Shown here one piece after another: positions 32,051 to 56,024 of a stretch of DNA of 64,000 nucleotides. This DNA is from an uncultured Spirochaetota bacterium. Its GTDB lineage: Bacteria; Spirochaetota; Brevinematia; Brevinematales; JAOACQ01. Location: positions 470,788 through 534,787 of the forward strand of contig CAWCLF010000003.1 of the NCBI GenBank assembly GCA_963796325.1. Reading direction: 5' to 3'. Every line of letters begins with the position of its first letter. Position 1 is the first letter of the stretch. The notes beneath the pieces were generated by a model. It saw nothing but the letters and a program-made list of their open reading frames with translations, did not search any database and was not told where the DNA came from. A program made the position numbers and the translations under genes.

Positions 32051-32123
32051 TATATTTATAACATTACAGACCCGTCATTTTTTTAATTTTAGAGCATCGC
32101 CGTTGAATAAGCAAATTTTACTT

Positions 32124-32216
32124 CGGTCGTCAGCCGACTGTCACAGTCGATAATGTGCAGTCATGTTATCCCTGAGGACTTTCGACTGATGACTGTTGAC
32201 TGACGACTGATGACTA
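32124..32216. repeat. Inverted 7-bp-unit repeat arrays (degenerate AGTCNNN arm / NNNGACT x6 arm)
   Basis: Right arm 32174-32215 reads gaggact ttcgact gatgact gttgact gacgact gatgact. The left arm 32124-32165 carries AGTC/GGTC units in the opposite orientation. Spacer ttatccct. Confidence 0.75.
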
Positions 32217-33029
32217 TATGTATCCGACGCCTTTAAAAAATGTATAAACGAAAACTCCGTCTTTGCCGGCCGTCCTGTACAGGTCCCTTATTCCCTTGTT
32301 GAAATCATTTTCATCGATTATGGAACTTTTAAGCGCCTCTTCCCTGATACCCTCGATCATGGCGGTAAACGTGTTTATTGTGAAGCCTTCGACCATCTCA
32401 GGCCTGCCGGGATCTGCATAAACGGTCCTCGTGCCGACCCTGCAGTTTTTGTAGCCCGCCGATTCGAGAAGTGGATAAATCTGCCTGCCGACAAGGGCGT
32501 TGCCGCCTTTCCGGGCCTGCAGGATCACCTGGGCCTCGATCGCTTTCCTTGCATAGGTGCTGTCCGGGTAAAAGAAGGCCGAGCCATGGTCTCCCTCGAT
32601 CACGGTGACGGTCCCGCCCTTTTTAAGGACCCTTTTTACGGACAGGAGGGCTGCGACAGGATCGGGCAGGTGTTCAAGAACAAAGCATATCAGGATATGG
32701 TCGAATGCGGAATCTTCGAAATCAAGTCTGTTGATGTCCCCTTCAAGGAGAGAGACGTTCTTTATTCCCTCTTTTTTAAGCATTGCCGCTGCTTTTGACA
32801 GGGATTCCACGGATATATCCATTGAAACGAATTTTGAATCGGGGTTTTTTGGAGCTACTATTTTTGTCTGTGCGCCTGTTCCGCAGCCCGCTTCAAGTAT
32901 CAGCGAACCTTTTGGAAAGACGGTGTCGGAATGCAGGAGGTCGGACAGGCACTCAGCCTGGTCTCTAAGCCTCGAAGCTTCCCTTTCGGTGTAGCCATGC
33001 ACATAATTATCGTTCATATTTTTTACCAT
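32214..33029 (-). CDS. Class I SAM-dependent methyltransferase
   Basis: Motif I LEAGCGTGAQ and post-I acidic residue (SMDIS). Substrate unknown. Confidence 0.8.
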   Translation of the reverse strand: MVKNMNDNYVHGYTEREASRLRDQAECLSDLLHSDTVFPKGSLILEAGCGTGAQTKIVAPKNPDSKFVSMDISVESLSKAAAMLKKEGIKNVSLLEGDINRLDFEDSAFDHILICFVLEHLPDPVAALLSVKRVLKKGGTVTVIEGDHGSAFFYPDSTYARKAIEAQVILQARKGGNALVGRQIYPLLESAGYKNCRVGTRTVYADPGRPEMVEGFTINTFTAMIEGIREEALKSSIIDENDFNKGIRDLYRTAGKDGVFVYTFFKGVGYI

Positions 33030-35591: not shown

Positions 35592-36389
35592 TTATCGAAA
35601 TTGATCCGGGACCGCTTCGACTTCAAGCCTCTTCATTTTAACGGCGCACCGGCCGTCCCTGCCGGGCGGGAATCCTATCAGGTAGTCATCAGCTATCATG
35701 GATATGAATTCGGCCTGCAGGTTAACAGGGAGCCTCTGCACGTACGGAGAGAGGGCTAACCTTATCCATCCTGCCAGTCCCTCTTTGCCTTCCAGGATGT
35801 TTTCCTTATCGACAAGTTCTATCCTTAAGGGTTTGAATCCGGTTTCAGCCAGCCATTTTTTATATTCATCGATGCCGTAATATCCGAACGAAAACCTGAA
35901 GCTGCTGAAATAATTCTCCCATTTTTTGTTTCCGGCTATTTTATAAAGGGATGAAAAAAGGTCCTGCATGTTGCCCTTACCGCCCATCTGTATGTAAAGC
36001 CTCCCGGAGCTTTTGAGGCTTTTCCGTATTCTTTCGAGCACCGGTACATGGCCGCTGAGCCAGTGAAGCGCGGATGTAGAATATACCAGGTCGAACTGCC
36101 TCTCAAACTTCATGTCGAGCACATCCAATAGCAGGAATTCGAGATTCGGGAAATCCTTCGCGCTGTAATACGCCTTCGAATATTCTATCATATCGATCGA
36201 ATTGTCTATCCCGGTAACATGGCCCCGGGGCACCGACAATGAAATTTCGGAGGTTATCTTACCGTCTCCGCTGCCGATATCGAGAACGGACTCTCCCCCG
36301 TCAAGTCTCAATTTTTTTGCGAATTCCATCGCCCATAATTTGTGCCTGGAAGGGCTGCCGCCGTATCCTGCAGGGTCCCATTTTACCAT
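35592..36389 (-). CDS. Class I SAM-dependent methyltransferase (trans-aconitate methyltransferase-like)
   Basis: Motif I LDIGSGDGKIT and N-terminal W..YG....H pattern resembling the Tam family. Confidence 0.75.
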   Translation of the reverse strand: MVKWDPAGYGGSPSRHKLWAMEFAKKLRLDGGESVLDIGSGDGKITSEISLSVPRGHVTGIDNSIDMIEYSKAYYSAKDFPNLEFLLLDVLDMKFERQFDLVYSTSALHWLSGHVPVLERIRKSLKSSGRLYIQMGGKGNMQDLFSSLYKIAGNKKWENYFSSFRFSFGYYGIDEYKKWLAETGFKPLRIELVDKENILEGKEGLAGWIRLALSPYVQRLPVNLQAEFISMIADDYLIGFPPGRDGRCAVKMKRLEVEAVPDQFR

Positions 36390-36538
36390 CGGATCTGTCT
36401 CCCTCGATTTGCCGGAACTTCCCGGATTGAATTAAATTATAGATATTATATGGGCGGTTCCAATAAAATTCAATATCGTTAATAATTAGCATTCTAATTA
36501 TTTATAATTCGCCCAATGGTCACTACTTATCCGCCTTG

Positions 36539-36622
36539 CTTGTACCGGCTTGTCCGGTGCTTGTACCGGCTTGTCCGGTGCTTGTACCGGCTTGTCCGGT
36601 GCTTGTACCGGCTTGTCCGGTG
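36539..36622. repeat. Perfect tandem repeat, 4 x 21 bp (gcttgtaccggcttgtccggt)
   Basis: Units at 36539-36559, 36560-36580, 36581-36601 and 36602-36622. Each unit is two ~10/11-bp sub-repeats (cttgtaccgg / cttgtccggtg). Degenerate half-units follow at about 36630 and 36647. Confidence 0.95.
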
Positions 36623-36723
36623 AAAAGGCCTTGTACCCGCAGGGTGCTTGTACCCGTAAGGGTAGGTTATTAGAAGTGACCATATGAAAATGCAAAGACT
36701 GTCAAAAAAAATCGGGAGGCCGT

Positions 36724-36948
36724 ATGAAAAATCAAGGCAGGATTTTATCATGGATAATCTGGGCCGGCATTGTAATAATCGCGCTTGTTTCGTACCATTC
36801 GGTCTGGGAGATCCATTACCTGAAATCGTTCTATCCCCATAGTTTCACGGTGGCCGAAGCTTTTTACGCGGCAATGGTCGAGCTAATAAAAGTGGCGCTC
36901 GCGGCGGGGCCGATCATTCTGATTATCAGGCGTTTATCCCCAGAATGA
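36724..36948 (+). CDS. Small hypothetical membrane protein (2 TM)
   Basis: GGGAGG RBS before the ATG; two hydrophobic helices. No homology recognised. Confidence 0.4.
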   Translation: MKNQGRILSWIIWAGIVIIALVSYHSVWEIHYLKSFYPHSFTVAEAFYAAMVELIKVALAAGPIILIIRRLSPE

Positions 36949-37254
36949 GACCGCAAGTCCGACGAGCCCGCCGCCGGCAAGACCTGTAAGGTTTATAGGG
37001 ATGTAAGCCCTCGTTATGATCGATGAAGGGACGCTGAATAAAAGGCCTGCCAAAAGACCTGTAATTACAGGACTTATCCCGAACTGCAGGTTCGGAATGA
37101 TGAAGCCGATGAGGAACCTGTCGATGAAGGCGCCTGTCATCGCTTCGGTTTTGTTCTTTTTCGAATCGTACTTCAGGGGAAGCATCAGCAGCACGTCTAT
37201 TACCCCGAATGCGAGGCCGCAAAGAAGACCCAGAAGAATGTGATTCATGATCAT
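36934..37254 (-). CDS. Small hypothetical polytopic membrane protein
   Basis: 106 aa, 3-4 hydrophobic segments, last gene of the long minus-strand array. No family recognised. Confidence 0.45.
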   Translation of the reverse strand: MIMNHILLGLLCGLAFGVIDVLLMLPLKYDSKKNKTEAMTGAFIDRFLIGFIIPNLQFGISPVITGLLAGLLFSVPSSIITRAYIPINLTGLAGGGLVGLAVSFWG

Positions 37255-37275
37255 CCTCCTTACAAATTAAAAAAT

Positions 37276-37839
37276 TTATACGCCGTCATATCCCAGGCGC
37301 TTCAAGATGAGATTGGCCATGACCGCCGCGGCCAGGGAAACCTTCGGAGAATAAAATCCTGCAGCACAGTTTCCGGGCCTGAAATCGCCTACGATGGCGA
37401 CGTTTTTACCGAACCAGCGAACCCTTACGCCTTCGATATCGAAGCCTGAGACTCCGCAGGCGCTAACCACGAATGCATCTTTACCGGCGAATGTTTCGAC
37501 AAGCGCGGCTTTAGATTCAGGGTTATCGAAACCCTCGACTATCACGGCGCAGCCTTTAAATACTTCAGGCAGAGCTGCCGCTGTGAGCATGCGCCTTTCC
37601 TTTTCTATCTTCAAACCCGTTCCGATGCGTTTGAGGTTCGCCTCGAGGGCCGATACCTTGTCTTTCCCGACCTGATTCCTGAAAAAGAACTGCCTGTTCA
37701 GGTTCGATTCGTCCACGAAATCGAAATCGACAAGCTTGAAATGTTTTATGCCGCACCTTACCAGGTGTACGGCCACATTGCTGCCTATGCCACCCGTTCC
37801 CGCTATTCCTATTTTATCCGCCGGCACTATCCCTTCCAT
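37276..37839 (-). CDS. Short ThiF-family (E1-like) adenylyltransferase
   Basis: Nucleotide-binding GTGGIGS and DESNLNRQ motifs. At ~187 aa it resembles the short 'ThiF family 2' proteins. No thiS/thiG/thiH nearby. Confidence 0.7.
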   Translation of the reverse strand: MEGIVPADKIGIAGTGGIGSNVAVHLVRCGIKHFKLVDFDFVDESNLNRQFFFRNQVGKDKVSALEANLKRIGTGLKIEKERRMLTAAALPEVFKGCAVIVEGFDNPESKAALVETFAGKDAFVVSACGVSGFDIEGVRVRWFGKNVAIVGDFRPGNCAAGFYSPKVSLAAAVMANLILKRLGYDGV

Positions 37840-37847
37840 ATTTTCCC

Positions 37848-38288
37848 CTAAAGATACATGAAAAAGCCGATCTTGTCCGTGGAGTTAAAGCCGAGCTTTT
37901 CATAAAAAGCATGGGCGGCTTTCCTCCCGGAGCTGGATAAAAGCATTACCTTGTAGCAGCCGCAAGCCCGGGCGAAATCGACCGCGGCATTGACGACTTT
38001 TGCGCCGCATCCCCTGTTCCTGTAGTCATGGCGGGTTACGACGTTTTCAATAACTGAAAACGGGCGGGCGCCTCTGGAAAGGTTGGGTATCACTGCAATA
38101 TTGCAGGTAGATACGATCTGTTCGCCCTGTTCCATGACGAAGTAACGGATGCTGTCTTTTCCCATGATATCGCGCCATACGGATTCAAGCGCTGTGTTAT
38201 CTGCAATATTGTCATCGTCCGGGTTCAATTCGGAATACAGCTTCATTATTCCGCCGAGGTCGTTTATATCCGCGGTCCTGACTTCCAT
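37848..38288 (-). CDS. GNAT family N-acetyltransferase
   Basis: 146 aa; acetyl-CoA-binding R-x-x-G-x-G/A motif (RNRGCGAKVV). Confidence 0.8.
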   Translation of the reverse strand: MEVRTADINDLGGIMKLYSELNPDDDNIADNTALESVWRDIMGKDSIRYFVMEQGEQIVSTCNIAVIPNLSRGARPFSVIENVVTRHDYRNRGCGAKVVNAAVDFARACGCYKVMLLSSSGRKAAHAFYEKLGFNSTDKIGFFMYL

Positions 38289-38289
38289 A

Positions 38290-40386
38290 TCACTCCCCTT
38301 TTACGTTTCCATTCATGTCGAACATGACTTCTGAACCTGCCGGATAAACCGTGCCGCCGATCTTCGTATCGTCAGAAAGCGTTCCCTTATAGAGCCTTCC
38401 GTTTTCATAAAAATACAATACGGTCCATTTCTGGAATGTAATGCCTTTGATTTTCGTATCGTCCCGGAGCGTTCCGCTTTTGAGCGCTCCCGAAGGGTAG
38501 AAACTTGCGTAGCTTGTTTTCCTGAAGACTATGTCCTGGCCTTCGCCCTTTAGATAGCTGTCTTCCTCGAGCATGCCGTTGGATAACGTTCCGGATTCGT
38601 ACAGCGTGATCTCGGATCCCTGCCTGAATGCCGTTTCATAAAGGGTGGTGCTGCGCGCAAGGATCCCGCTTCTGACCTTACCCGACCTGTAGAAAGATAC
38701 AGGCCCCGAATATTCGATATCCTGCAGGACAGTTTCATGCGACAGCACCGCACTCTGGACTTTACCGGTATCGTAAAATGAAATGCCGGGCAGATAGATA
38801 TCTGAGGCCTTGCCGCTTTTATCGAAGCCGTTCGTGACCGTTTTAATTAAAGGCTTGAAAGTCACGCCTTCGATGACCTCGGTTTCCCCGGCCAGGGAAC
38901 CGTTTGAAACAATCCCGTTTGAATAGAAGGTGACGACCGTTCCATCCCTGAATACGATAGGGCTGTAGATTTTCATAAGCTCCTGGTCGCCCGACAGGGT
39001 CCCGGATTCGACCTGACCGCCGCGGTAAAACATGATGCTCGTATTCGAAAGGAATTTTATTTTTTTAACGGCAAGGTCCCCGGCTGATAGAGCGTTTTCC
39101 AGCGTCCCCCCTTCATAAAAGCCGACAGGCGTTCCGGCCTCGAACGTGACGCCATGGTCGATCTCGCTTTTGCCCAGCGTCCCGGCCTTTGCCGTTCCGT
39201 CGGGATAAAAATCGACTTCGCATCCGCCCTTGAAAAGCCTGCCGCCGGCGGTTAAATCGGCTTCCGGGGTTCCCGATATCACTTTCCCCTTTTCGTCGAA
39301 GGCGATTTTAAAGCCGTCTTTCCATGCAATCCCGCCGATAACTGTCCCGGCCGAAAGCGTCGCGGACATCACTCTGCCGTTCTCAAAAAAATTTATTTCT
39401 TCGTAGCCCTTGCATGGGGCCCCTTTTATGAGCGAGTCGGCATACAGAACTGCGCTCCGGACCGTTCCGGATTTAAAGAATGTTATGGGGTTTTGCCCCC
39501 TGTAGAGCACTCCGTCTATCCTTGCGTTTTCCGCAAGCTCCATTTTAAGGGGAAGGATCATCTGGCCTGATTTTGAAAGATTGAGCGTCGTCCCGGTCTC
39601 TATTTTCATATGACGCATCCGGATAGATGCCGCGAGGGTCCCGCTTTTAGGTTTTCCGCCGGAATACACGGCGATCTGTTCGTTGCCCCTGAAGGGAATG
39701 CCGCTATAAAGCATGTCCCTGCCGATCTCGATCCTGTCAGGATATACAGGCGCTCCTCCCGAGCCGAACAGGACTTCGGCGCCCTTGTAGAACGGCAAGC
39801 CGGCGATCATAGTATCCCCGGCAAGGGAAACGCTCAAAAGGGCGCCCGAATCGTAAAAACGCACTTCAGAATCCGCCGGAACATTGATTCCATCGATCGG
39901 AGTATCTTTCGCCAGAGTGCCGAAGCTCACATTGCCCGAATCGTAAAAATAAGTATCCATATTCGCTTTAAAATCGATCCCTTTGAATACCGTGTCCTCT
40001 GCAAGCTCCATTTTCGGAGGCATAATAACCCTCCCGTCGCCGGAAAAGGCGAGCGACAATCCGGCCGGGAAAAGTATTCCCTGGATGCGCGTATCGGAAT
40101 CGATTTTTACGGCCGCGATCTTTTTATTTTTAAGATAGATCTCGGTGTAAGGATGGAATTTTATCCCCAGGATTTCCGAATCATCGGTAAGCTTTATATA
40201 GATGAGGTTGCTCCTGGCGTCTATAGCGACTTCCGAACCCTCTTTCAGGAAAAAGCCCTGGTAAGTCCTGTCCTTTTTTAAGGTTATTACAGGCCCGTCG
40301 AAGGGGAATAAAACCTGCGCCGCAAGCGTCAGGATTATGAAAACAAGAATGACTGTCGACTGCCGACTATTGACTGTTGACTTCAT
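38290..40386 (-). CDS. Secreted repeat protein built from ~30-aa units (..I.GI.F..GT.V.FY.SG.L.SGTL..DT..)
   Basis: ATG 40386, preceded by a GGGGGAA RBS 10 nt after the upstream stop, is preferred over the track start at 40449. Signal-like N-terminus MKSTVNSRQSTVILVFIILTLAAQ. More than 20 tandem degenerate repeats. Paralogous to the upstream gene. Confidence 0.65.
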   Translation of the reverse strand: MKSTVNSRQSTVILVFIILTLAAQVLFPFDGPVITLKKDRTYQGFFLKEGSEVAIDARSNLIYIKLTDDSEILGIKFHPYTEIYLKNKKIAAVKIDSDTRIQGILFPAGLSLAFSGDGRVIMPPKMELAEDTVFKGIDFKANMDTYFYDSGNVSFGTLAKDTPIDGINVPADSEVRFYDSGALLSVSLAGDTMIAGLPFYKGAEVLFGSGGAPVYPDRIEIGRDMLYSGIPFRGNEQIAVYSGGKPKSGTLAASIRMRHMKIETGTTLNLSKSGQMILPLKMELAENARIDGVLYRGQNPITFFKSGTVRSAVLYADSLIKGAPCKGYEEINFFENGRVMSATLSAGTVIGGIAWKDGFKIAFDEKGKVISGTPEADLTAGGRLFKGGCEVDFYPDGTAKAGTLGKSEIDHGVTFEAGTPVGFYEGGTLENALSAGDLAVKKIKFLSNTSIMFYRGGQVESGTLSGDQELMKIYSPIVFRDGTVVTFYSNGIVSNGSLAGETEVIEGVTFKPLIKTVTNGFDKSGKASDIYLPGISFYDTGKVQSAVLSHETVLQDIEYSGPVSFYRSGKVRSGILARSTTLYETAFRQGSEITLYESGTLSNGMLEEDSYLKGEGQDIVFRKTSYASFYPSGALKSGTLRDDTKIKGITFQKWTVLYFYENGRLYKGTLSDDTKIGGTVYPAGSEVMFDMNGNVKGE
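40349..40383. repeat. Single-arm 7-bp-unit array (NNGACTN x5) inside the 5' end of a CDS
   Basis: GACT at 40351, 40358, 40365, 40372 and 40379, an exact 7-bp register. Encodes KSTVNSRQSTV of the downstream repeat protein. Confidence 0.8.
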
Positions 40387-40396
40387 GTATTCCCCC

Positions 40397-41818
40397 TCAC
40401 TTCCTGATATTGCCGGACTGATCGAACCTGACTTCGCTGTATGCTTCAACTTTTACGCCGCCGATCTCCATGTCTTTAACGGGCTTCGCCGATGCGAGCG
40501 CGCCCTTTTCATCCAATTTTATCTCGGTGCCGGGCGGCAGTGTGAACTGGTAGAAAGCCTTCGCCTCAGCCAGGATCCCTCCGCTTACGCTTCCGGATTC
40601 AAAAAACGAAACCCTTGTATTCTTCAGGAATTTTATGCCCTGGAAAACCGTGTCGTCCTTTACCTGTACGGACTTTATTTTTCCGGATTCGGCGAAGGCA
40701 ACGTTCCGTCCCTCTATGAGGCTCATGCCGCCCGTTTTCATATTTTCCGTTAAAACAGCCGATTTGAGCTTTCCGGATTCGTAGAGTGATACCGCAGTCC
40801 CTGCCTTATAAGTATTGGAGGATATCGCGGCGTTTTCGGCCAGCGTGCCGGAACTGACTTTCCCGGAAGGGTAGAACGATATCCTGGTTTTGGCCCTGAA
40901 CTTCAAGCCTCCCGATTCGGCATCGGAAGCGAGCATGCCGCCTGAAAGTTCGCCGGTTTCGTAAAATGTAATTTCATTGCCGGCGGCGAATGTCATCGAT
41001 TTGAAGGCTGCATCGGCGGGCGTAACTGCGCTTTCAAGCCCGCCCTCGTCGTAGAATTTTAATCTGGAGCCGGTTTTTAAACTGATGTTTTTGAAGGCTG
41101 CGTCCCCGCCGAGCGTCCCTGTACGGACGTATTCGAACGGGCCGAATTCGACCTTCGTGCCTTCACTGAAAACCATGCCCTGGATTTTCGTGTTCTCAGC
41201 GAGGTCGAGCTCCGGCGGCATAATGAGCGAGCCGTCCCTGTCGAAATACAGCATAGAACCGGCCTTGAAGAGAATGCCCTGCACCCTGGCCGGCGCGCCG
41301 AGCCCGGCGGTATCCAGCCGTCCTGCGGAACTCCACCCGAGCTCTGTGCCTGCGGGGAAATCTATGCCTTCCGCCCTGAATTCAGCCGACAGGACGGCTG
41401 TTACAAAAGCCCCCGATTCCAGGAAGCCGGCGTATGTGCCTCCCCTGCATGGGATGGAATTAATCAGGGTATCCGCCCCCAGGTAAACACAATCGAGTTT
41501 CCCGCTTTCATAAAAAAATGCCGTGCTCCCGGCTTTGAACTTATGCCCCTGGACGGCAGTGTCCGCCGCCATTACGCACGAACGGAGGCTCCCCGATTCG
41601 AAAAAGGAAACCTCGGTGTTCTTTGCGCATACGATGCCATGAAGGGACGTATCCGCACTCAGGACCCCCATCCGGAGGCTGCCTGAAGAATAAACGTATA
41701 TCCAGCCGCTTTTAATCGGAAGCCCCTGGATAACGGTGTTTTTATCGAGGTTCTGCCATCCGGCGTAGGAAGCGCCGGCAGCGGTAAAAAGAATAAAGGA
41801 TAGCAATAAATATTTCAT
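40397..41818 (-). CDS. Secreted repeat protein, paralog of 38290-40386 (~30-aa units)
   Basis: ATG 41818 preceded by GGGAGGG. Signal peptide MKYLLLSFILFTAAGASYA. Same F(Y/F)ESG.L..G.L..D periodicity as the downstream gene. Confidence 0.65.
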   Translation of the reverse strand: MKYLLLSFILFTAAGASYAGWQNLDKNTVIQGLPIKSGWIYVYSSGSLRMGVLSADTSLHGIVCAKNTEVSFFESGSLRSCVMAADTAVQGHKFKAGSTAFFYESGKLDCVYLGADTLINSIPCRGGTYAGFLESGAFVTAVLSAEFRAEGIDFPAGTELGWSSAGRLDTAGLGAPARVQGILFKAGSMLYFDRDGSLIMPPELDLAENTKIQGMVFSEGTKVEFGPFEYVRTGTLGGDAAFKNISLKTGSRLKFYDEGGLESAVTPADAAFKSMTFAAGNEITFYETGELSGGMLASDAESGGLKFRAKTRISFYPSGKVSSGTLAENAAISSNTYKAGTAVSLYESGKLKSAVLTENMKTGGMSLIEGRNVAFAESGKIKSVQVKDDTVFQGIKFLKNTRVSFFESGSVSGGILAEAKAFYQFTLPPGTEIKLDEKGALASAKPVKDMEIGGVKVEAYSEVRFDQSGNIRK

Positions 41819-41841
41819 GATCCCTCCCTGCGGCAGCCTGT

Positions 41842-42996
41842 TTAGAATTTCTTCCACCTGAACATTTTAAGGGCGGGGTCGCCTTTAAAATTTTTCATGA
41901 TCAGCAGAAGGTCGTCCGAGCCGTACCGGGCGGTCAGCGCGTTTGCAATATCGACGGCGACAGTATTTTCAATGACAACTCCGCATGCGGCAACTGCGGT
42001 TATATCGGAGCGTTCTGTTGAAGCGGATTCCGCAGATTTGGTTTTTATATTGACCGACCTCAGCGGGATCATCAGGGTGGGTATGGGTTTCATAACGGAC
42101 CTGAAAACCACGGGACTGCCGTTCGTCATGCCGCCTTCTATCCCGCCCGCCCTGTTTGTCTTCCTGTAGTACTTTTGTTCGCTGCCGCTGTAAAAGATCT
42201 CGTCGTGCGAGTTCCTTCCCGAAGTGGAAGCGTACCTGAACCCGTAGCCGAATTCGATCCCCTTTACCGCCTGTATGCCCAGCACCGTCCTTGCGATGTT
42301 CGAATCGAGCTTTTCCCCGAATGTCTGGTAGCTGCCCAGGTACGGAGGCACCGGGAAAATTATCGTTTCGATGATCCCGCCTATGGTATCGCCCTCCATC
42401 CTCGCCCCGGCGATAAGGGCCTTGATCTTCGCCCCGGTATCTTCGTCGCAGGCGCACCTTAAATCGCTCGAAAGGGACATCGACCTTATTTCATTTATCG
42501 AAAGTGAAGACGTGTCTATCTCGATGCCGCCCCAGTTGACGACGTGAGAAAAGATCCCGATGCCGAATTCCTTCAGGAAAATGCGCGCCACGGCGCCGGC
42601 GGCCACCCTGGCGGATGTCTCACGGGCGCTCGATCTTTCGAGCACCCTGCGGATATCGTCCGTCGAGCCGAATTTATAGGCCCCCGTCAGGTCTGCATGG
42701 CCCGGCCTGGGCCGGAGCACCTTCGGAGGATTTTTATCCTTCCAGTTTTCATAGTCTTTATTCCAGATGACGAGGGTTATCGGGGCGCCGTTCGTGACCC
42801 CGTTTATGACGCCGGCGATTATATCGACCCGGTCTTTTTCGATTTTCATCCTGTCGCCGCGGCCGTATCCCGTCTGCCTTCCGGCAAGCTGGGAATTGAT
42901 GAAGTCCTCGTCGATTTTAAGGTTGGATGGAACTCCTTTAACGGTGACGGTCATGCCCCTGCCATGGGATTCGCCCGATGTTATGTATTCTATCAT
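41842..42996 (-). CDS. aroC: Chorismate synthase
   Basis: N-terminal TSGESHGRG, RPGHAD and GGIEGGMTNG motifs. Confidence 0.93.
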   Translation of the reverse strand: MIEYITSGESHGRGMTVTVKGVPSNLKIDEDFINSQLAGRQTGYGRGDRMKIEKDRVDIIAGVINGVTNGAPITLVIWNKDYENWKDKNPPKVLRPRPGHADLTGAYKFGSTDDIRRVLERSSARETSARVAAGAVARIFLKEFGIGIFSHVVNWGGIEIDTSSLSINEIRSMSLSSDLRCACDEDTGAKIKALIAGARMEGDTIGGIIETIIFPVPPYLGSYQTFGEKLDSNIARTVLGIQAVKGIEFGYGFRYASTSGRNSHDEIFYSGSEQKYYRKTNRAGGIEGGMTNGSPVVFRSVMKPIPTLMIPLRSVNIKTKSAESASTERSDITAVAACGVVIENTVAVDIANALTARYGSDDLLLIMKNFKGDPALKMFRWKKF

Positions 42997-43065
42997 AACA
43001 AACCCTCTTGTTCTTAATAATATATCACGGAACTATTTTAATAAAAGGGGCCTATTATATCAATC

Positions 43066-44625
43066 TTAATCGATCCTGTAATGGGCGCCGATGCTTTCAC
43101 GGTTCGCCCGGGCATGCCTTGCGACCAGGAGGCCTGTCTGGACTGCATTGCGCAGTTCGATTATGGATTTCGACACCTTCGTGTCCCGGTAAAAATCTTC
43201 GACGTCGACATTGAGGTTATTCAGGTCGACTATGGCGCGCCTTAGACGCCTGGAACTCCTGACCGCGCCGACATAATTCCACATGATGTTCTTGAGAAGG
43301 TTCCAGTCCTGGTTGATAAGCGCCTGGTCCGCTCCGTCGCTTACGCCGGTATCTATCCAGTCGAGGATATTTGAAAATCCCGGATCCGCCAGGTAATTCT
43401 TTTTGTTCTTTGCTATATATCCGGCGGCCCTTTTACCGAATACCACGCCTTCCAGGAGCGAAGTGCTGGCCAGGCGGTTGGCGCCATGGAGCCCTGTGCA
43501 TGCGACTTCTCCGACCGCGAAAAGCCTCTCGATATTCGTCTTCCCGTTCATGTCGGTAAGGATCCCGCCGCAGGAAAAGTGGAACGCCGGAACGACGGGC
43601 AGGGGTTCGAGGGTAATGTCGAACCCGTAATCGAGGCAGGTCCTGTATATATAAGGGAACCTGTTTTTTATCTTGGCCTGGCCTATGCCCGTAATATCGA
43701 GATATACGTATTTTTCACCGGAATCGAGCATCTCGTTCAAAATTGCTCGTGTCACTATATCCCTTGGCGCGAGGTCTTTCAGGGGATGGTACTTTTCCAT
43801 GAAGCGGCGTCCGTTCTTGTCGACGATGACGGCCCCTTCGCCTCTTACCGATTCCGATATGAGGAAATTAGAGGCCTTGGGATGGTACAGGGTCGTCGGA
43901 TGAAACTGGGTGTATTCCATGTTGATGAGCCTGGCGCCCGCCCTGTTTGCCATTGCATATCCGTCGCCCGTTGCCAGGGAAGGGTTCGTTGTATGAAGAT
44001 AGATCTGCCCCATACCTCCCGTGGCAAGGACCACGACGCCTGAAAGTATTTTAACCACCTGGCCGCTCCTGTTGTCGACGGCATAAACTCCCATTGAAGT
44101 GACCGGCTGGTATTTCCGGTATTTGTCGAAGGAGTGGTGGTCCAGCGTGATAATATCGATGACGGTGTGGTCGGGCAGAAATGTTATATTTTTGCAGTTT
44201 TTAAGGCTTTTTATGGCATTTTCCTCGATGCTTTTGCCGGTCGAGTCGAATGCATGGAGGATCCTGCGGGCCGAATGAGCGGCTTCCTCGGTGAGGTCAA
44301 GGCGGCCTTCGCCGTCCCTTGAGAAGTCGACGCTGAAATTTCTGATGAGGACCTCGTCCACGTCGGCTCCGGATTCCCTGGAGATGATAAGGGCCGCCTC
44401 GGGATTGGATATGCCTCCGCCGGCGCTCATGATATCGTTGAACAGGAGCTCCGGCGAATCTTTTTTACCCCTGTAAACAATGCCGCCCTGCGCATAGTAG
44501 GTATTGCTCTGTTCAATGCTTTCGGCCTTGTTAATGAGGGCGACTTTCAGACCTTCTTCTGCAAGGTAGTATGCGCAAACGGACCCGGCAATGCCGCTTC
44601 CCACGACTACAGCGTCGAATTCCAT
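43066..44625 (-). CDS. nadB: L-aspartate oxidase
   Basis: GSGIAG FAD fold, YAQGGI, FHPT, and a succinate dehydrogenase/fumarate reductase flavoprotein-like layout at ~520 aa. Confidence 0.88.
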   Translation of the reverse strand: MEFDAVVVGSGIAGSVCAYYLAEEGLKVALINKAESIEQSNTYYAQGGIVYRGKKDSPELLFNDIMSAGGGISNPEAALIISRESGADVDEVLIRNFSVDFSRDGEGRLDLTEEAAHSARRILHAFDSTGKSIEENAIKSLKNCKNITFLPDHTVIDIITLDHHSFDKYRKYQPVTSMGVYAVDNRSGQVVKILSGVVVLATGGMGQIYLHTTNPSLATGDGYAMANRAGARLINMEYTQFHPTTLYHPKASNFLISESVRGEGAVIVDKNGRRFMEKYHPLKDLAPRDIVTRAILNEMLDSGEKYVYLDITGIGQAKIKNRFPYIYRTCLDYGFDITLEPLPVVPAFHFSCGGILTDMNGKTNIERLFAVGEVACTGLHGANRLASTSLLEGVVFGKRAAGYIAKNKKNYLADPGFSNILDWIDTGVSDGADQALINQDWNLLKNIMWNYVGAVRSSRRLRRAIVDLNNLNVDVEDFYRDTKVSKSIIELRNAVQTGLLVARHARANRESIGAHYRID

Positions 44626-44640
44626 GATTTCCTCCAGTTG

Positions 44641-45408
44641 TCAAAGCCGGGAAAGGATAAGAGGTTCGCCGTCGGTAACGGCAATGGAATGTTCCCAGTG
44701 GGCCGCGCATTTATTGTCGGCTGTTACGACGGTCCAGCCGTCCTTTAACGTCCTGACCTCGTGCGTGCCGAGCGTTATCATCGGTTCGATGGCCAGGACC
44801 ATTCCCTTTTTAAGTTTCGGGCCTTTTCTTTTGGGATCGTAATAATTGATTACGGGAGGCTCTTCGTGCAGGGCCTTCCCCACGCCATGGCCGCAGTAAT
44901 CGCGGATAATGCCGTACCCTTTGGGAGAGAGATAAAAAGATATGGCCCTGCCGATTTCGAAGAGGTAATTTCCCTCCCTTGCGGCGTCTATGCCCAGCAT
45001 CAGGGCCTGGCGGGTGTCTTCCGACAGTTTTTTTATCTCGGGCTTTACGGTGCCAACAAGGTAAGCGCGGGTGGCGTCGCCGTAATACCCGGACAGTATT
45101 GTGCCGATATCGATCTTGACTATGTCGCCGTCTTTAAGAATATAGCTGCCGGGGATGCCATGAATAACTTCGCTGTTGACGGAAATGCATGTATCGGCCG
45201 GGAAACCGGGAAAACGGGGTGAGGGCGTATATCCCTTGAAACTCGATATTGCCCCCTTCGACCGGATGAAATCCGATGCGAGGGAATCCAGCTCGAGAGT
45301 TGAAACGCCCGGCCTGACATAAGGATTGAGATAATCGAACAATTCGGCTATTATGCGGTTGCTCTTCCTGATGTATTCGATTTCAACGCTGGTCTTTAAT
45401 GAAATCAT
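44641..45408 (-). CDS. map: Type I methionine aminopeptidase
   Basis: Metal-ligand context DIVKIDIG, GHGVGKALHEEP, IEPM and EHSIAVT. Confidence 0.93.
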   Translation of the reverse strand: MISLKTSVEIEYIRKSNRIIAELFDYLNPYVRPGVSTLELDSLASDFIRSKGAISSFKGYTPSPRFPGFPADTCISVNSEVIHGIPGSYILKDGDIVKIDIGTILSGYYGDATRAYLVGTVKPEIKKLSEDTRQALMLGIDAAREGNYLFEIGRAISFYLSPKGYGIIRDYCGHGVGKALHEEPPVINYYDPKRKGPKLKKGMVLAIEPMITLGTHEVRTLKDGWTVVTADNKCAAHWEHSIAVTDGEPLILSRL

Positions 45409-45879
45409 CTATTTTGCCGGGGCTTCTTTTATCTTCAGGTCGGTTATCTTTTTCTTTTCTTCGTCGAAAATCGCGTCGAAGTTGATCGACGGGCCCGAAG
45501 CGTAAGCGTCTTCGATGATCTTGTCGACGTCCTTCTTCTGCCCGGCAGTGATTGTGATGTTTCCCTTCACCACTACTCCGGGGTCCATGGAGAGCTGGGG
45601 AGTCATGATATTCCCAAGCACCCTTCCCGTCGAAAGGAGCTTCACTTCCTCGAGCGCGTCTATATCGCCCAGAACGATGCCGGCGATCGTCACCTTCTTG
45701 GCGCGGATAACTTCAGTTTTGACTTTTCCCGTCTCGCCTACGTAGAGGTGTTCCTCGGATCTTATCTCCCCCTCGAATTTTCCATCGATCTGAAACGATC
45801 CATGAACAAAAAATTTCCCCTGGAAAACCGAACCTTCCCCGATCATTGTATTAAGCGGGCCTTCAACTTTTGGCGGCAT
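45409..45879 (-). CDS. Bactofilin-family polymer-forming cytoskeletal protein
   Basis: DUF583-like beta-helical repeats (GEGSVFQGKFFVHGSFQIDGKFEGEI...VTIAGIVLGDI...) and a charged C-terminal tail. Abuts the map start. Confidence 0.8.
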   Translation of the reverse strand: MPPKVEGPLNTMIGEGSVFQGKFFVHGSFQIDGKFEGEIRSEEHLYVGETGKVKTEVIRAKKVTIAGIVLGDIDALEEVKLLSTGRVLGNIMTPQLSMDPGVVVKGNITITAGQKKDVDKIIEDAYASGPSINFDAIFDEEKKKITDLKIKEAPAK

Positions 45880-45951
45880 ATCAACCTCCTTGCCGGAACC
45901 CTTGCATACCCGATATGATTATAACATAAAAAAAAATTCGCGTTAAGTTTT

Positions 45952-46794
45952 TCAAAGACTTCCGACTTTTTCCCTGAACCGGGGCAGAATTCTTTCGGCG
46001 TCTTCAAGGCTTATCCCGAAGCGCCCGATTTCATCCGATTCGTCGTCGCCGTGGAAATCGCTCCCGGCCGTTAAGATCAGCTTTTTTGAATATTCTTCCG
46101 CAATCCTTGCCGAGAACCCTTTTGAAATCCTGGGATGCATATATTCTATCCCGGCAAGGCCCGCCGATATCATCCTGTCCACGCATCCCCATTTGTCCCC
46201 TGATTTGAGAAAGACCGGATGCGCAAGAACGGGAACGCCTCCCGCACTTTTAACGGCGGATATGACATCGTACGTTCCGACTTCCTTTCTCTCGATGTTG
46301 CAGGGACGCCCTTCGCCCAGGTATTTTTCGAACGCTTCGCGGACGCTTCCGGTATATTTCAGCCGGACCATTTCACGGGCTATGTGCATTCTTCCTACAG
46401 GCTTGCTGGACCTCTGCAGGAGCGCTTCGAGAGGAATATCGATATGGTATTTTTTAAGACATTCCAGTATACGTCCGGCCCTCTTTTTGCGTCCCCTTCT
46501 GAATTCCTCAAGAAATCCGTCCATTTCCCTGTACGATTCGCCTGAAAAATATCCCAGGATATGGGTTTCGCCGGTATCCGCGTTATAGGTGGAAAATTCG
46601 CATCCCGCTATAAAATAGATCGGCGGCGTGAAACGTTTTATGGCTCTGAGGCAGGCGCCGACGCCTTCGAAGGTGTCATGATCGGTCAGGGCGAATCCGC
46701 CCAGGTTTTTATGAACCGCCGTATTAACGATCTCTTCAGGACTGTAAAGGCCGTCGGAAAGGACGGAATGAACATGAAGATCTGCAATTTTCAA
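45952..46794 (-). CDS. PHP-domain metal-dependent phosphoesterase
   Basis: DLHVHS, TDHD, AHP and GSDFHG motifs. Confidence 0.85.
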   Translation of the reverse strand: MKIADLHVHSVLSDGLYSPEEIVNTAVHKNLGGFALTDHDTFEGVGACLRAIKRFTPPIYFIAGCEFSTYNADTGETHILGYFSGESYREMDGFLEEFRRGRKKRAGRILECLKKYHIDIPLEALLQRSSKPVGRMHIAREMVRLKYTGSVREAFEKYLGEGRPCNIERKEVGTYDVISAVKSAGGVPVLAHPVFLKSGDKWGCVDRMISAGLAGIEYMHPRISKGFSARIAEEYSKKLILTAGSDFHGDDESDEIGRFGISLEDAERILPRFREKVGSL

Positions 46795-46853
46795 TTCGGC
46801 AACTCCTTAACAGTATTTTACGGTCTTACCTGAAATTAATCAAGTAATACCTT

Positions 46854-47249
46854 TTATTGATCCCTGAAATACACCTCTAGCGGTTTAAAATAAAATTCTT
46901 CCCACCCCTTCCTGTATTCCTCCCCCTGGCCTTCGGGAATTTCAGTATGCTTCAGGGTCAGCAAGGTATCTTTGCCCTTTTCTTCAAGGGTTATTTCAAG
47001 TTTTGAATCCGGGCTCTCGATCGGGAATTCGGTTGTCCGCCATGCCTGGACGATCCGGGCGAAGGGTTCAAGCTCGAGCGTGGTTCCCATGATGTAGCCG
47101 TCCCAGGCTTTGAATTTTCCGCCTGCTTCAGGGACGATTTCGGCGGGCGATCCCGTGAATCCCGAATGTTCGCCGCTGTCCAGCCATGCTTTGTAAATCC
47201 GTTCGGCGCTTGCCGGAATCCTGACCGACAACTCAATGGATTCTTTCAT
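46854..47249 (-). CDS. SRPBCC/Aha1-domain protein
   Basis: 131 aa, AHSA1-like pattern (IYKAWLDSGEHSGFTG..., TLLTLKHTEIPEG). Function unknown. Confidence 0.65.
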   Translation of the reverse strand: MKESIELSVRIPASAERIYKAWLDSGEHSGFTGSPAEIVPEAGGKFKAWDGYIMGTTLELEPFARIVQAWRTTEFPIESPDSKLEITLEEKGKDTLLTLKHTEIPEGQGEEYRKGWEEFYFKPLEVYFRDQ

Positions 47250-47334
47250 AATGCCTCCGACATTGGTTTTATTAAAACAAGCTTATATTAAAGTAACTAT
47301 CGCGGGATAAAATATCAAATCCGCTAGATCTGAC

Positions 47335-47425
47335 GGTAGTCGTCAGTCGTCAGTCTGCAGTCGACGGTCGGCAGTGGATAGTTTATAATGTCGACTTTCG
47401 ACTGCCGACTGCTGACTTTCGACTG
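47335..47425. repeat. Inverted 7-bp-unit repeat arrays: (NNNAGTC)x6, 14-bp spacer, (NNGACTK)x5
   Basis: 47335-47376 reads ggtagtc gtcagtc gtcagtc tgcagtc gacggtc ggcagtg. Spacer gatagtttataatg. 47391-47425 reads tcgactt tcgactg ccgactg ctgactt tcgactg. Confidence 0.9.
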
Positions 47426-47492
47426 AATAAGTTGAAAGTTCGGGGTTCAGGATTTAAAATATTAAATTGCCTGTGTTTGAAGGAGCCGGCTT

Positions 47493-49931
47493 ATGGAAAG
47501 GATCTATGATTTTTTAAGCATTGAAAAAAAATGGCGGGAATTCTGGGACTCTGAAAAGACTTTCAGGGTGACCGAGGATCCCTCGTACCCCGATGAGAAA
47601 CGGCTGTATGTACTCGACATGTTTCCGTACCCTTCGGGTTCCGGCCTGCATGTCGGGCATCCCGAAGGATATACGGCCACCGATATTTATACGCGCTTCA
47701 AGCGCCTTCAGGGCTACAACGTTCTTCATCCCATGGGTTTCGATTCCTTCGGGCTTCCGGCGGAGAATTACGCCATAGAGAAGGGTACGCATCCGGCTGT
47801 AATAACCGTTGAAAATATAGACCGCTTCAGGAACCAGATAAAGTCCCTGGGGTTCTCCTACGACTGGGACCGCGAGGTTTCTACGTCGAGCCCCGATTAC
47901 TATAAATGGACTCAGTGGATATTTCTCCAGCTTTTTAAAAAGGGTCTCGCATACGAAGCGGATATGCCGATCAACTGGTGCCCCCACTGCCTGACCGGGC
48001 TGGCAAACGAGGAAGTCAGCGACGGGAAGTGCGACAGGTGTTCGACCCCGATCGAGAGGCGGAGGATCAGGCAATGGATTTTAAAAATAACCGCATACGC
48101 CGAAAGGCTCCTTCTTGACCTCTCTCTCCTCGACTGGCCTGAACCCATCAAGCTCATGCAGGAAAACTGGATAGGAAAGAGCGAGGGGGCCGAGGTCGAC
48201 TTCAGGGTCGACGGGATGGAGGATCTTATCCGTGTTTATACGACAAGGCCCGATACGCTTTTCGGGGCCACGTACATGGTCCTGGCGCCCGAGCATCCGC
48301 TTGTGGAGAAGATAACTGCCCCCGGGAATTCGGATGATGTCGAAATATATATTAATAAAACAGTGTCGAAATCCGAACTGCAGAGGACCGAACTCAACAA
48401 GGAAAAAACGGGCGTTTTTACCGGAGCCTATGCCGTGAACCCTGTAAACGGCGCCAAAATACCAATCTGGATAGCAGATTACGTATTGTGGGGCTACGGT
48501 ACGGGCGCTATCATGGCAGTGCCTGCACATGACGAACGCGATTTCGAATTTGCAAAAAAATTCTCCCTTTCCATTGTCCAGGTCGTATCCGGGGACGGGA
48601 GCGTTTATCCTGCGGTCCGGCCCGAAACGGAAGATGGCATTTCCGTCAATTCCGGGGAATTCAGCGGCATGAAGACTGCCGCCTGCAAAAAAGCTATTAC
48701 CGAATGGCTTGCAAAAAGGGGCCTGGGCCAGAGCAAGGTTAACTACAAGCTTAGAGACTGGGTATTTTCACGGCAGAGGTACTGGGGAGAACCGATACCC
48801 GTCGTGCACTGCGAAAATTGCGGGATAGTCCCGATCGATGAAAAAGAACTTCCCCTCAGGCTGCCCGAAGTCAAATCATACAAACCGACGGGCACGGGGG
48901 AGTCGCCGCTTGCCGGCATCGAAGAGTGGGTAAATACAAAATGTCCGAAATGCGGGGGCCGGGCCCGGCGGGAAACCAACACAATGCCACAGTGGGCCGG
49001 AAGTTCCTGGTATTATATAAGGTTCACCGATCCGCATAACGACAAGGCCCCGGCCGACGCCGCCAATATCAGGTACTGGCTGCCGGTCGACCTTTATATA
49101 GGCGGAGCCGAGCATGCGGTTCTGCATCTGTTGTATGCGCGGTTCTGGCATAAATTCCTGTTCGATATCGGCGTCGTCAATACGCCGGAGCCGTTCATGT
49201 CGCTCAAGAACCAGGGTATGATTTTAGGCGAGAACGGCGAAAAGATGTCCAAGTCGCGGGGCAACGTTGTCAACCCGGACGATGTGGTAAATGAATACGG
49301 GGCCGACACTCTCAGGATTTACGAGATGTTCCTGGGGCCGCTTGCTTCGGATAAGCCATGGAACATGCAGAGCATAATCGGGATCAAGAGGTTCCTCGAC
49401 AAGGCCTGGAAGCTTTTCGAAAAAAATACGGCTGATGATGCGCCCGTGCCTCTTGAGCTTTTAAAACTCCGGCACAGGACAGTCAAAACGGTTGCCGAAA
49501 AGATAGACGCCCTTGAATTCAACACTGCAGTAAGCTCGCTGATGATATTTGTCAACGCGCTTTCAAGGGAGGATGTGCTCAACAGGCCGCTCCTCCGCGA
49601 TTTCACTGTCATTCTTCACCCGTTCGCCCCCTTTATTACCGAAGAAATGTGGGAGATCTGCGGGGAGAAGCCTTCCGTATCGGCCGCTGCATGGCCGGAA
49701 TACGATCCGGAAATGATAAGAGAGGATTTCATAGCCATTGCCGTCCAGGAAAACGGGAAGCTCCGCGACACGGTCCGGATGCCGGCCGGTGTATCCGCCG
49801 ATGAAATGATAAAACAGGCCATGGAGAGTAAAAAAGTGAAACTTGCGCTGGAAAATAAAGAAGTGGTGAAGATAATACCGGTGCCGGGCAGGGTCGTAAA
49901 TATCGTGACGAAACCCATGACAGGCAAATAA
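47493..49931 (+). CDS. leuS: Leucine--tRNA ligase
   Basis: HIGH-type HVGH, KMSKS, CP1 editing domain region, zinc-binding Cys pairs; 812 aa. Confidence 0.96.
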
Positions 49932-49936
49932 AAAAT

Positions 49937-49966
49937 TTGACATCACCGGTTTCAAAATGCTATCAT
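49937..49966 (+). promoter_or_regulatory. Candidate extended -10 promoter for the HD-domain gene
   Basis: Consensus TTGACA (49937-49942), 18-bp spacer ending in TGc, TATCAT (49961-49966). Confidence 0.45.
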
Positions 49967-50016
49967 ATTTTCGAGTTAATAAATGACGTTTAATAAATAA
50001 TTCAGGGAGAGTCGTT

Positions 50017-50940
50017 ATGGATCAGAATAAGGAAGCGGTGCAGCTTTCCCGTCTTCTGAAAAGCCCTGCACCACAGCATGTAATCTCGGAAGTCAAAAAG
50101 ATTTTCCAGTACTCCTACCCGTCACATTCCTTCTCGAAAATCCTGAGTAATTTCAAGAATATCGTCAATCTCTTCGACGGGAAATTCCCCGGATACCAGG
50201 CCTGCAATACTATGTACCACAATCTCGGCCATACGCTGGACGCCCTGCTGGCCGCAGCCCGCCTTGCCGACGGCTACAACCTTTCGTCCGGAAACATGAG
50301 CTGCGAAACCATGGTAGACCTTCTTCAGGCAGCCCTCTTCCACGATACGGGTTATATACTCGAGGACTGGGACAGGACCGGGACCGGCGCCAAGTACACG
50401 AAAAGCCATGTCGAAAGAAGCATGATGTTCATTCAGAAGAACAGGCCTGCCCTCCAGCTTGACAGCAGGGAAGTCGCCGTTATATCGAGGATAATTTCCT
50501 GCACGGGGCTCCAGGTAAACTGGAAGGATATCCCCTTTAACAGCCGGGACGAGGAGATAGCGGGCGCGATACTCGGTACGGCCGACCTTTTAGGCCAGAT
50601 GTCCGACAGGTTTTACCTTGAAAAACTGCACTACCTTTACGACGAATTCAGGGAAGCCGGCATACAGGGATATGATACCGAATTCGATATAATACAGAAA
50701 ACTGCGTTTTTCTACAAGATGACGACCGACAGGTTTTCAAGCGATCTTATGAACGTAAACGAGTATGCGAAGGTTCATTTCAGGGCGAGGTTCGGGATGG
50801 ATTCCAACCTCTACATGGAATCGATATCCAGGCACATCGATTACCTGAAGGGAATCATCGAGGACAGCACTTCGAACTTCAGGAACAAGCTCAAGCGGAA
50901 AGCTGCCTATATACCTCTTTATTACAGCCAGGCGCACTGA
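50017..50940 (+). CDS. HD-domain metal-dependent phosphohydrolase
   Basis: H...HD signature: HNLGHTLD followed by FHDTGY. Specific function unknown. Confidence 0.7.
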   Translation: MDQNKEAVQLSRLLKSPAPQHVISEVKKIFQYSYPSHSFSKILSNFKNIVNLFDGKFPGYQACNTMYHNLGHTLDALLAAARLADGYNLSSGNMSCETMVDLLQAALFHDTGYILEDWDRTGTGAKYTKSHVERSMMFIQKNRPALQLDSREVAVISRIISCTGLQVNWKDIPFNSRDEEIAGAILGTADLLGQMSDRFYLEKLHYLYDEFREAGIQGYDTEFDIIQKTAFFYKMTTDRFSSDLMNVNEYAKVHFRARFGMDSNLYMESISRHIDYLKGIIEDSTSNFRNKLKRKAAYIPLYYSQAH

Positions 50941-50955
50941 CGTCTGTCGGCAATC

Positions 50956-51086
50956 GAAAGTCGGCAGTCGACAGTCAACTTCAGTCAAGAGTCGAGAGTC
51001 GAGAGTGACATTTGCCGGTAAATAATTGCCGGTTGTTTGTTAATCAGCACTCGTTCTATACGACTGTTGACTGTTGACTGTTGACT
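50956..51086. repeat. Inverted 7-bp-unit repeat arrays flanking a 46-bp core, between convergent genes
   Basis: AGTC at 50959, 50966, 50973, 50983, 50990 and 50997. The core contains ttgccggt twice (51012 and 51026). GACT at 51062, 51069, 51076 and 51083 (cgactgt tgactgt tgactgt tgactg). Confidence 0.9.
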
Positions 51087-52191: not shown

Positions 52192-52211
52192 AACTGACCC
52201 GGCAGTTAAAT

Positions 52212-52299
52212 GGAGAGATGCCCGAGCGGTCGAAGGGGGCACCCTGCTAAGGTGTTGTACCCCATAAGGGTACCGAGGGTTCGAATCCCTCTCTCTCCG
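52212..52299 (+). tRNA. tRNA-Ser (anticodon GCU), class II with long variable arm
   Basis: Hand-folded. Acceptor GGAGAGA/TCTCTCC. Anticodon stem GCACC/GGTGT with loop CTGCTAA (GCT). Variable arm tgtaccccataagggtacc. T arm GAGGG-TTCGAAT-CCCTC. Discriminator G. No encoded CCA. Confidence 0.9.
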
Positions 52300-52567
52300 A
52301 ATCGAACTTACCGCCTAAATGTTGTATAGTCAACCACATCAACCCCGTGCTACGGAAAAATTAATTTTAGCGATCGAGAGGTAACAGTTTAAGGTAAAGA
52401 AGGATCGAATAGATGGGAAAAAGCAATAATTTGAATAAAAAGTAACATTTTTCTACGTGAAATATCAGATAATATATTCATTAAGAACTGGAAATTTAAA
52501 GAAAGAGAGCATAGTACTGGCGTGGTCATAGGACTAAGGTTAGAAATCGTAAGAGAGAATCCGTAAT

Positions 52568-53686: not shown

Positions 53687-53818
53687 AAAATTCTTTTTTA
53701 TTTGATATAGATAGACGAAGAGTATAAAATAATCAGGTAAAACACTAAATTATTTTTACCCATGAATTATTTCTGTTAAAGTAAAAAATAGAAAAGTATT
53801 CGTTTTATAAGGGGATAC

Positions 53819-55930: not shown

Positions 55931-56024
55931 CCGCCGAAGGGTTGTGGAAATAGGCTCTGACCCGGCAGACTGTCAGGATAGCAACGGGAAGGCGGGTGAA
56001 ATAGATGGGCTGTGTTATGAGTTG

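Follow-up and report, generated by a model that had tools for sequence, protein, structure and literature searches.

A heptanucleotide array in the first codons of a Brevinematales repeat-protein gene, probably a tolerated copy of a dispersed repeat

When a gene for an exported protein carries a 7-bp tandem repeat just after its start codon, is the repeat a frameshift switch, or did it come to lie there for other reasons? The question is raised by a gene for a predicted secreted repeat protein from an uncultured Spirochaetota bacterium (Brevinematales; assembly GCA_963796325.1, contig CAWCLF010000003.1, positions 470,788 to 534,787). We analyzed the whole of this stretch of 64,000 nucleotides (nt), hereafter the window, for which a sequence-only reading had proposed phase variation of the gene. 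In our judgment the array is probably something else, one copy, in frame and tolerated, of a dispersed heptamer repeat specific to this lineage, which lengthens the n-region of the signal peptide and has no function dedicated to this site. The gene and its immediate surroundings are as follows.

38290–40386, minus strand: gene of a predicted secreted, MORN_2-like repeat protein of 698 amino acids (aa), with a weak Pfam MORN_2 match
40384–40386, minus strand: ATG start codon of this gene, at a position homologous in the orthologues (ATGAA...)
40351–40382, minus strand: focal heptamer array, four full units plus a core, read by the gene in the AGTC sense and coding for residues 2–12 (KSTVNSRQSTV)
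40315–40350, minus strand: hydrophobic core of the signal peptide, ILVFIILTLAAQ, residues 13–24, a layout common to the orthologues and a distant homologue
40392–40398, minus strand: Shine-Dalgarno-like GAGGGGG, found by direct reading 5 nt 5′ of the ATG and overlapping the TGA stop codon of the upstream paralogue (40397–40399)
40397–41818, minus strand: upstream paralogue, 473 aa as called, starting with MKYLLLSFILF, without the array

GACT cores with an exact period of 7 bp start at 40351, 40358, 40365, 40372 and 40379 of the plus strand, in the units GACTGTC, GACTGCC, GACTATT, GACTGTT and GACT(TCA). These coordinates and their spacing had been given by the sequence-only reading, and they held on direct reading and in a core search. 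Read on the minus strand, the array starts two bases past the ATG (after ATGAA) and codes for K2 to V12. The protein starts with MKSTVNSRQSTV, followed by ILVFIILTLAAQ, and translation agreed with the earlier placement of residues 2–12 in the n-region of a signal peptide. By its layout, this predicted signal peptide is of the Sec type, with K2 and R8 in a basic n-region ahead of the core; the homologues are alike. An exhaustive HMMER search recovered 865 homologues of the repeat protein, and a word-indexed search with the same protein gave no matches. The first 80 codons hold no in-frame ATG, GTG or TTG other than the start.

The focal tract is heterogeneous. Its 4.6 copies comprise four different units, adjacent units are never identical and differ at one to three of seven positions, and the longest self-match at lag 7 is 6 nt. 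The array is a solo, unpaired arm and is unstructured, with a fold z-score of +0.09, and an RNA structure at this place was rejected on this result. An independent Logan assembly (L001) was 100% identical across positions 36596–50386 of the window; with both assemblies giving the same sequence, the unit count cannot be blamed on one assembler. Read on the GACT strand, the array has TGA in its TGACT units, and only one of the three frames is open; on the AGTC strand a TAG closes one frame, and the other two, among them the frame used by the gene, are open.

Three further features of this region were set aside. An open reading frame (ORF) of 138 aa on the plus strand, 40337–40753, has its ATG just left of the array and crosses it in the sole open frame of the GACT strand (MKTRMTVDCRLLTVDF…); lying wholly within both repeat-protein genes, it is most likely spurious. 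A promoter role for the −35-like TTGACT units was rejected by eye, with no −10 element at the proper distance. The AGTC motifs with 14-bp spacing in the last codons of the paralogue (GACT at ~40416 and ~40430 of the plus strand, by eye) are separate from the focal array; their spacing reflects the conserved protein motif (E/K)FDxSGN, which also occurs in orthologues without AGTC.

The focal array has sisters. Throughout the 64 kb, GACT/AGTC cores in 7-bp register form seven arrays at four sites; Tandem Repeats Finder (TRF) gave a period of 7 or 14. Besides the focal array, the following were found.

32123–32150, plus strand: degenerate AGTC-type arm, pairing with the array at 32177–32215
32177–32215, plus strand: GACT array of six units, at the TAG stop codon (32214–32216) of a methyltransferase gene and 5′ of a SpoIIE/HATPase gene
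47338–47375, plus strand: AGTC array, left arm, in the divergent AHSA1/leuS intergenic region
47393–47424, plus strand: GACT array of five units, right arm, partner of 47338–47375
50946–51006, plus strand: AGTC-type arrays in two registers, left arm, starting 6 nt past the stop codon of gene 50017–50940
51062–51087, plus strand: (GACTGTT)x3 plus GACTG, right arm, overlapping the last codons of trpS (51040–52074, minus strand), to which it adds STVNSQQSYRTSAD

When the window was simulated 100 times with a first-order Markov model, arrays of at least three units occurred at a mean of 0.07 (observed, seven) and arrays of at least four units did not occur (observed, five). GACT is constant in all 28 units. 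The fifth base is G in 68% of them and the seventh C or T in 79%, and the sixth is never G; the constancy of the core follows partly from the way in which units were selected. The unit is GACT plus three variable bases, with a consensus of about GACTG-N-Y. An explanation by a restriction or nicking site (GAGTC/GANTC) was rejected, since it fits the units at 50983–51006 only and not the CAGTC majority.

The arrays lie at gene edges. Four are intergenic, one abuts a stop codon, one covers the last 14 codons of trpS and one, the focal array, occupies codons 2–12. The neighboring genes encode a class I S-adenosylmethionine (SAM) methyltransferase, a SpoIIE/HATPase regulator, an AHSA1 protein, leucyl-tRNA synthetase (LeuRS), an Npun_R2479-family protein and tryptophanyl-tRNA synthetase (TrpRS). 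The trpS product ends in ...KVGLLPQSTVNSQQSYRTSAD*, and its homology to solved structures stops at about residue 328–330 (…KVGLLPQ), just before STVNSQQSYRTSAD. The sequence-only reading had ascribed the TrpRS peptide QSTVNSQQS to the same element, correctly, as the array at 51062–51087 codes for it. Its likeness to KSTVNSRQSTV is automatic, because three units of 7 nt make 21 nt, or seven codons, and every frame of (AGTCAAC)n gives the cyclic heptapeptide SQQSTVN. The two peptides are by-products of the DNA repeat and share no protein motif, and annotators should treat STVNSQQ-type peptides in this way.

Was the focal array inserted into an existing gene? Orthologous loci were reached via the neighboring chorismate synthase gene (aroC) and contig look-ups. 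The synthase places the organism in Brevinematales/Brevinematia, with best non-self matches that were 73–77% identical; among proteins of the Joint Genome Institute (JGI) none was more than 77% identical to the synthase of the window organism. Two related Brevinematales genomes (L002 and L003) have kept the gene order aroC, paralogue, repeat-protein gene, and the spacer from the upstream stop codon to the ATG is 10 nt in the window and in L002 alike. In L002, L003 and L004 the orthologues start at the homologous ATGAA, without the array. Orthologue N-termini are MKNRLFIISLFILTGF… (MKNRLFII...) and MKNIILSAVFLSSF… (MKNIILSA...), and the best distant homologue of the 865 starts with MKRFGLILLSLLF (MKRFGLILL), also without the array; the corresponding signal layouts are MKNRLFIISLFIL, MKNIILSAVFL and MKRFGLILLSLLF. 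The orthologues rejoin the window protein at …KDRTYQG(F/I)FLKEG, ahead of which the window protein is longer than the two by 7 and 9 residues. Because the orthologues are shorter and lack the array, we read it as an in-frame insertion that separates codon 2 from the hydrophobic core. The comparison with paralogue and orthologues, which had been recommended along with the phase-variation proposal, found the array in neither.

The absence extends to the whole family. About 92 kb from the loci of five relatives contained no GACT-type heptamer array, and the family is therefore a lineage-specific expansion. Array positions are not conserved between the related species, as the syntenic loci of L002, L003 and L004 show for the focal array. 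The window has a G + C content of 48%, versus 36–46% at syntenic or related loci of the nearest relatives (L002, L003, L125–L127), and thus the array-carrying lineage has also shifted in base composition. Beside the inverted pair at 47338–47424 lies an AHSA1-family gene (46854–47249) with no counterpart in L003 and L004; in L003 (5270–5330) leuS and a PHP gene are just 60 bp apart. Since the junction in L003 and L004 is without AHSA1, not only the arrays but also the gene beside leuS is specific to the lineage here.

Three of the four sites are inverted pairs, in which a spacer separates an AGTC-type arm on the left from a GACT-type arm on the right, and long imperfect hairpins were predicted for them. 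The folds were each compared with 200 dinucleotide shuffles.

47325–47435: −52.5 kcal/mol, z −5.96
50942–51090: −67.5 kcal/mol, z −7.44
32120–32225, plus strand: −41.4 kcal/mol, z −5.0
32120–32225, minus strand: −38.3 kcal/mol, z −4.55

An Rfam scan of the window returned tRNA only, with no known RNA family at any array. A promoter-like match covers 47361–47389, that is, array and loop. One more element lies in the loop of the convergent site.

51014–51033, plus strand: terminator-like hairpin GCCGGTAAATAATTGCCGGT, followed by TGTTTGTT

The gene at 50017–50940 appears to have its native terminator here.

In a scan of 185,579 species' genomes with five GACT cores in 7-bp register as the query, at least 120 loci matched, a result that shows wide spread, gives no frequencies and is uninformative on other Brevinematales. 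The phyla among the matches listed are cyanobacteria, Bacteroidota, Acidobacteriota, Verrucomicrobiota, Planctomycetota, Gemmatimonadota and others. Nostoc, Dolichospermum, Tychonema and Microcoleus carry GACTGGG and GACTGTT arrays among these matches (STRR1- and STRR3-type, see below), and in Acidobacteriota and Bacteroidota degenerate paired arrays fill short intergenic gaps.

The paired arrays have a polarity. All three pairs of the window have the AGTC arm first, and so do 12 of the 14 paired loci from other phyla among the matches listed (partner within 300 bp), which makes 15 of 17 for the window and these matches combined. AGTC-first loci are L007, L015, L032, L042, L059, L067, L069, L081, L089, L095, L097 and L098; the exceptions are L035 and L048. 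Among the matches listed, the paired arrays of other phyla lie 2–27 nt from ORF ends. A terminator-like GC stem with a T run is found in some loops, at 51014–51033 of the window and in L048 (1488–1630), L089 (724–877) and L097 (395–449), which suggests that the terminator hairpins were there first and that arrays flank or extend them. Simple slippage explains neither the polarity bias nor the terminator-like hairpins in the loops.

To which known class do these arrays belong? Cyanobacterial short tandemly repeated repetitive sequences (STRR), reportedly described by Mazel and colleagues in 1990, include STRR1 (CCCCAGT) and STRR3 (CAACAGT). The (GACTGTT)n array at 51062–51087 is the reverse complement of STRR3 (CAACAGT)n, and several units of the focal array either match as well or differ at a single base. 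Unlike the cyanobacterial arrays, which are mostly long and pure, those of the window have 3–6 units of mixed variants, and the resemblance may be convergent.

Mrazek et al. (2007) are reported to have found heptamers to be the most over-represented long simple-sequence repeats (LSSR) of many bacterial genomes. The (GGGANTN)n arrays of Xanthomonas number ~186 copies per genome, of which 89–93% are intergenic, at a mean of 28 nt from the upstream ORF, and 7–11% overlap ORFs; 70–75 convergent inverted pairs were counted, the positions are unshared by two sister species, and heterogeneous units surround a conserved core (Rehm et al. 2015, PMC4692102, where Calothrix heptanucleotides are also mentioned). 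The window arrays resemble this GGGAATC family in being dispersed, heterogeneous 7-nt units around a core, typically about four per array, mostly intergenic and near ORF ends. Frequent convergent inverted pairs, a minority lying over ORFs, the lack of a bias toward surface genes and positions unshared between species are further likenesses. The Xanthomonas core is G-rich, whereas here it is GACT, with no G-quadruplex potential, in a Spirochaetota (Brevinematales) host, and the focal copy differs in being read in frame inside a signal peptide.

TAACTGA repeats occur in marine Beggiatoaceae, some cyanobacteria and Bacteroidetes, with intragenic copies solely at ORF peripheries, reverse-orientation repeats tolerated only at ORF starts and ends, and relatives that have the same gene neighborhood without repeats (MacGregor 2015, PMC4679880). 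They share with the window arrays an ACTG-core heptamer, many sets at gene boundaries, a stop-bearing and a translatable orientation, and relatives free of repeats. There, however, most are direct repeats shortly 5′ of start codons, a single indirect repeat being reported, whereas inverted pairs dominate here and the units are degenerate. The arrays of the window have all the defining traits of the dispersed heptanucleotide class (LSSR/STRR type), and Spirochaetota (Brevinematales) can be added to the lineages that carry it.

The reading that we prefer, a tolerated copy of a dispersed heptamer repeat, would work as follows. Arrays would originate by polymerase slippage or template switching in 7-nt register and settle at gene boundaries, usually as two inverted arms forming a long imperfect hairpin around an intergenic spacer. 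The focal copy would be a solo arm that formed at the very start of the ORF, past codon 2 but ahead of the hydrophobic core. Its survival would rest on the AGTC sense being open in the frame used, on a net length that keeps the frame and on the tolerance of the n-region; Sec signal-peptide n-regions tolerate additional polar or basic residues. The present effect would be an n-region longer by ~7–10 residues and nothing more, the insertion being presumably near-neutral and the protein presumably still exported.

Four points weigh against this reading. It does not account for the mechanism that placed an array of ~32 nt where the orthologues have no seed, and neither an enzyme nor a target duplication was seen. 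That the family extends over the whole genome is extrapolated from the 64 kb of the window, with its four sites. Near-neutrality is presumed, and so is export with the longer n-region. Finally, the conservation of GACT while positions 5–7 vary could point to a selected binding site and not to neutral dynamics.

Phase variation, in which slipped-strand mispairing would change the number of 7-bp units and toggle the secreted repeat protein on and off, is unlikely for this tract, although its arithmetic is sound. Simulated changes of plus or minus one or two units gave products of 8–63 aa and three-unit changes stayed in frame, which bears out the earlier claim that a one-unit change shifts the frame and makes a switch arithmetically possible. 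The unit is not divisible by three and lies inside the ORF, within the first 12 codons; three-unit changes would restore the frame, no downstream in-frame start would rescue the protein and the product is a predicted secreted protein. In having such a tandem unit at the 5′ end of an exported-protein gene, the locus resembles known contingency loci, examples of which are the tetranucleotide tracts in ORFs of Haemophilus and Neisseria and the 7-bp ATCTTTC repeats in hmw promoters. Homogeneous tracts are the rule in established contingency loci. Close Cyanothece strains differ at heptamer arrays mostly through 7-nt indels (PMC4679880), and simple sequence repeats are enriched near prokaryotic ORF N-termini, according to work cited in PMC4692102.

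The tract itself argues the other way. With no identical neighbors among its units and a lag-7 self-match of only 6 nt, it is a poor substrate for slipped-strand mispairing, and it differs in this from the homogeneous, demonstrably polymorphic tracts of contingency loci. Its sister arrays stand beside housekeeping genes and not beside genes of surface or host interaction (trpS, leuS, the methyltransferase and SpoIIE/HATPase genes); because of this, the focal location fits the gene-edge habit of the element and not selection on a surface protein. The same argument was used to reject phase variation in Xanthomonas (Rehm et al., PMC4692102). The array is also a recent insertion, absent from the orthologues. 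On these grounds, and with the array missing from the paralogue too, the proposed switch is left without support. The agreement of the two assemblies on the unit count is a weak point against it, both being from one sample. In a search for variants, the exact repeat protein was found only in the Logan contig and the metagenome-assembled genome (MAG), with one sample on record (ERR10755942); via the neighboring genes, GNAT was found on the same two contigs, the bactofilin look-up was empty and the protein clusters were singletons. Before a 5′ 7-bp tract is called phase-variable, annotators should check its purity and the distribution of the repeat across the genome.

A cis-regulatory array is an equally doubtful explanation. 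The AGUC/GACT cores would bind a multimeric RNA- or DNA-binding protein that controls translation initiation or transcription at many gene boundaries, among them this start codon. The omega repressor of pSM19035 has heptad operators arrayed in direct as well as inverted orientation. As in a recognition motif, the core is invariant and positions 5–7 are variable, and the focal array is unstructured and lies 2 nt past the ATG; for TAACTGA repeats beside start codons MacGregor proposed a post-transcriptional regulator (PMC4679880). However, no candidate binding protein was identified, and the placement is inconsistent, at a 3′ end, in 5′ coding sequence, in a divergent promoter region and in a convergent terminator region. 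The invariance of GACT comes partly from the picking of units, and relatives with the same genes are entirely without arrays, so there is no conserved regulon.

The polarity of the pairs allows a further reading, to which we give little credence. The arrays would be polar, hairpin-building elements of cross-phylum occurrence, 5′-(AGTCNNN)n, loop, (NNNGACT)n-3′, that grow around intergenic stem-loops by a specific process, such as nick-primed fold-back synthesis or a dedicated binding protein; a solo arm in a 5′ coding region, as in this gene, could then make a genuine frameshift switch for an exported protein of a free-living spirochaete.

That the arrays are remnants of a mobile hairpin is also improbable. 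Here the elements would be of the repetitive extragenic palindrome (REP)/REPIN type (REP doublets forming hairpins) or miniature inverted-repeat transposable elements (MITE), the focal copy being a half-element left after insertion or deletion. The stable inverted pairs at three of four sites, always with the AGTC arm before the loop and the GACT arm after it, are as expected of such hairpins, as are the AGTC-first order in 12 of the 14 paired loci elsewhere among the matches listed and positions that are unconserved among relatives. Yet, unlike REP, REPIN and bacterial interspersed mosaic elements (BIME), the arms share the heptamer core alone and no common palindrome of 20–40 nt, and their lengths, unit composition and loops differ. 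Terminal repeats and target duplications were not seen. A Y1 (RAYT) transposase is absent among the 18 ORFs of the window that were scanned, where the transposases are of the rve-type of insertion sequences (IS). The apparent native terminator in one loop is better explained by arrays growing around a hairpin already present than by insertion of a unit.

Chance periodicity or an assembly artefact, for which only the short length of the array (32 nt) speaks, is hardly credible against seven arrays observed for 0.07 simulated, two identical assemblies and a reading frame intact through the array.

What does the locus offer? Arrays have remodeled the protein termini of three genes: one lengthens the n-region of a signal peptide, another supplies the tail of TrpRS, 14 residues long, and a third has a stop codon at its edge. 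With its array-free orthologues the locus is a clean before/after comparison, and it does not solve the origin or function of bacterial heptamer arrays.

The window holds other repeats and mobile genes. A perfect 21-bp tandem repeat (TGCTTGTACCGGCTTGTCCGG, 4.1 copies) at 36537–36622 lies in the gap between the ORFs 35592–36389 and 36934–37254, with degenerate copies after it (…CTTGTACCCGCAGGGTGCTTGTACCCG…); the Logan contig terminates within it, at 36596. In the region 52211–57893 a tRNA-Ser(gct) gene at 52211–52300 is followed by three rve-type integrase/transposase genes (52568–53686, 54614–55903 and 56592–57881), the last two being part of tandem IS copies, 95.8% identical across 1484 bp. 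A 120-bp repeat in three copies (67% matches) at 16806–17167, within the ORF 16391–17224 on the minus strand, is probably a repeat at the protein level.

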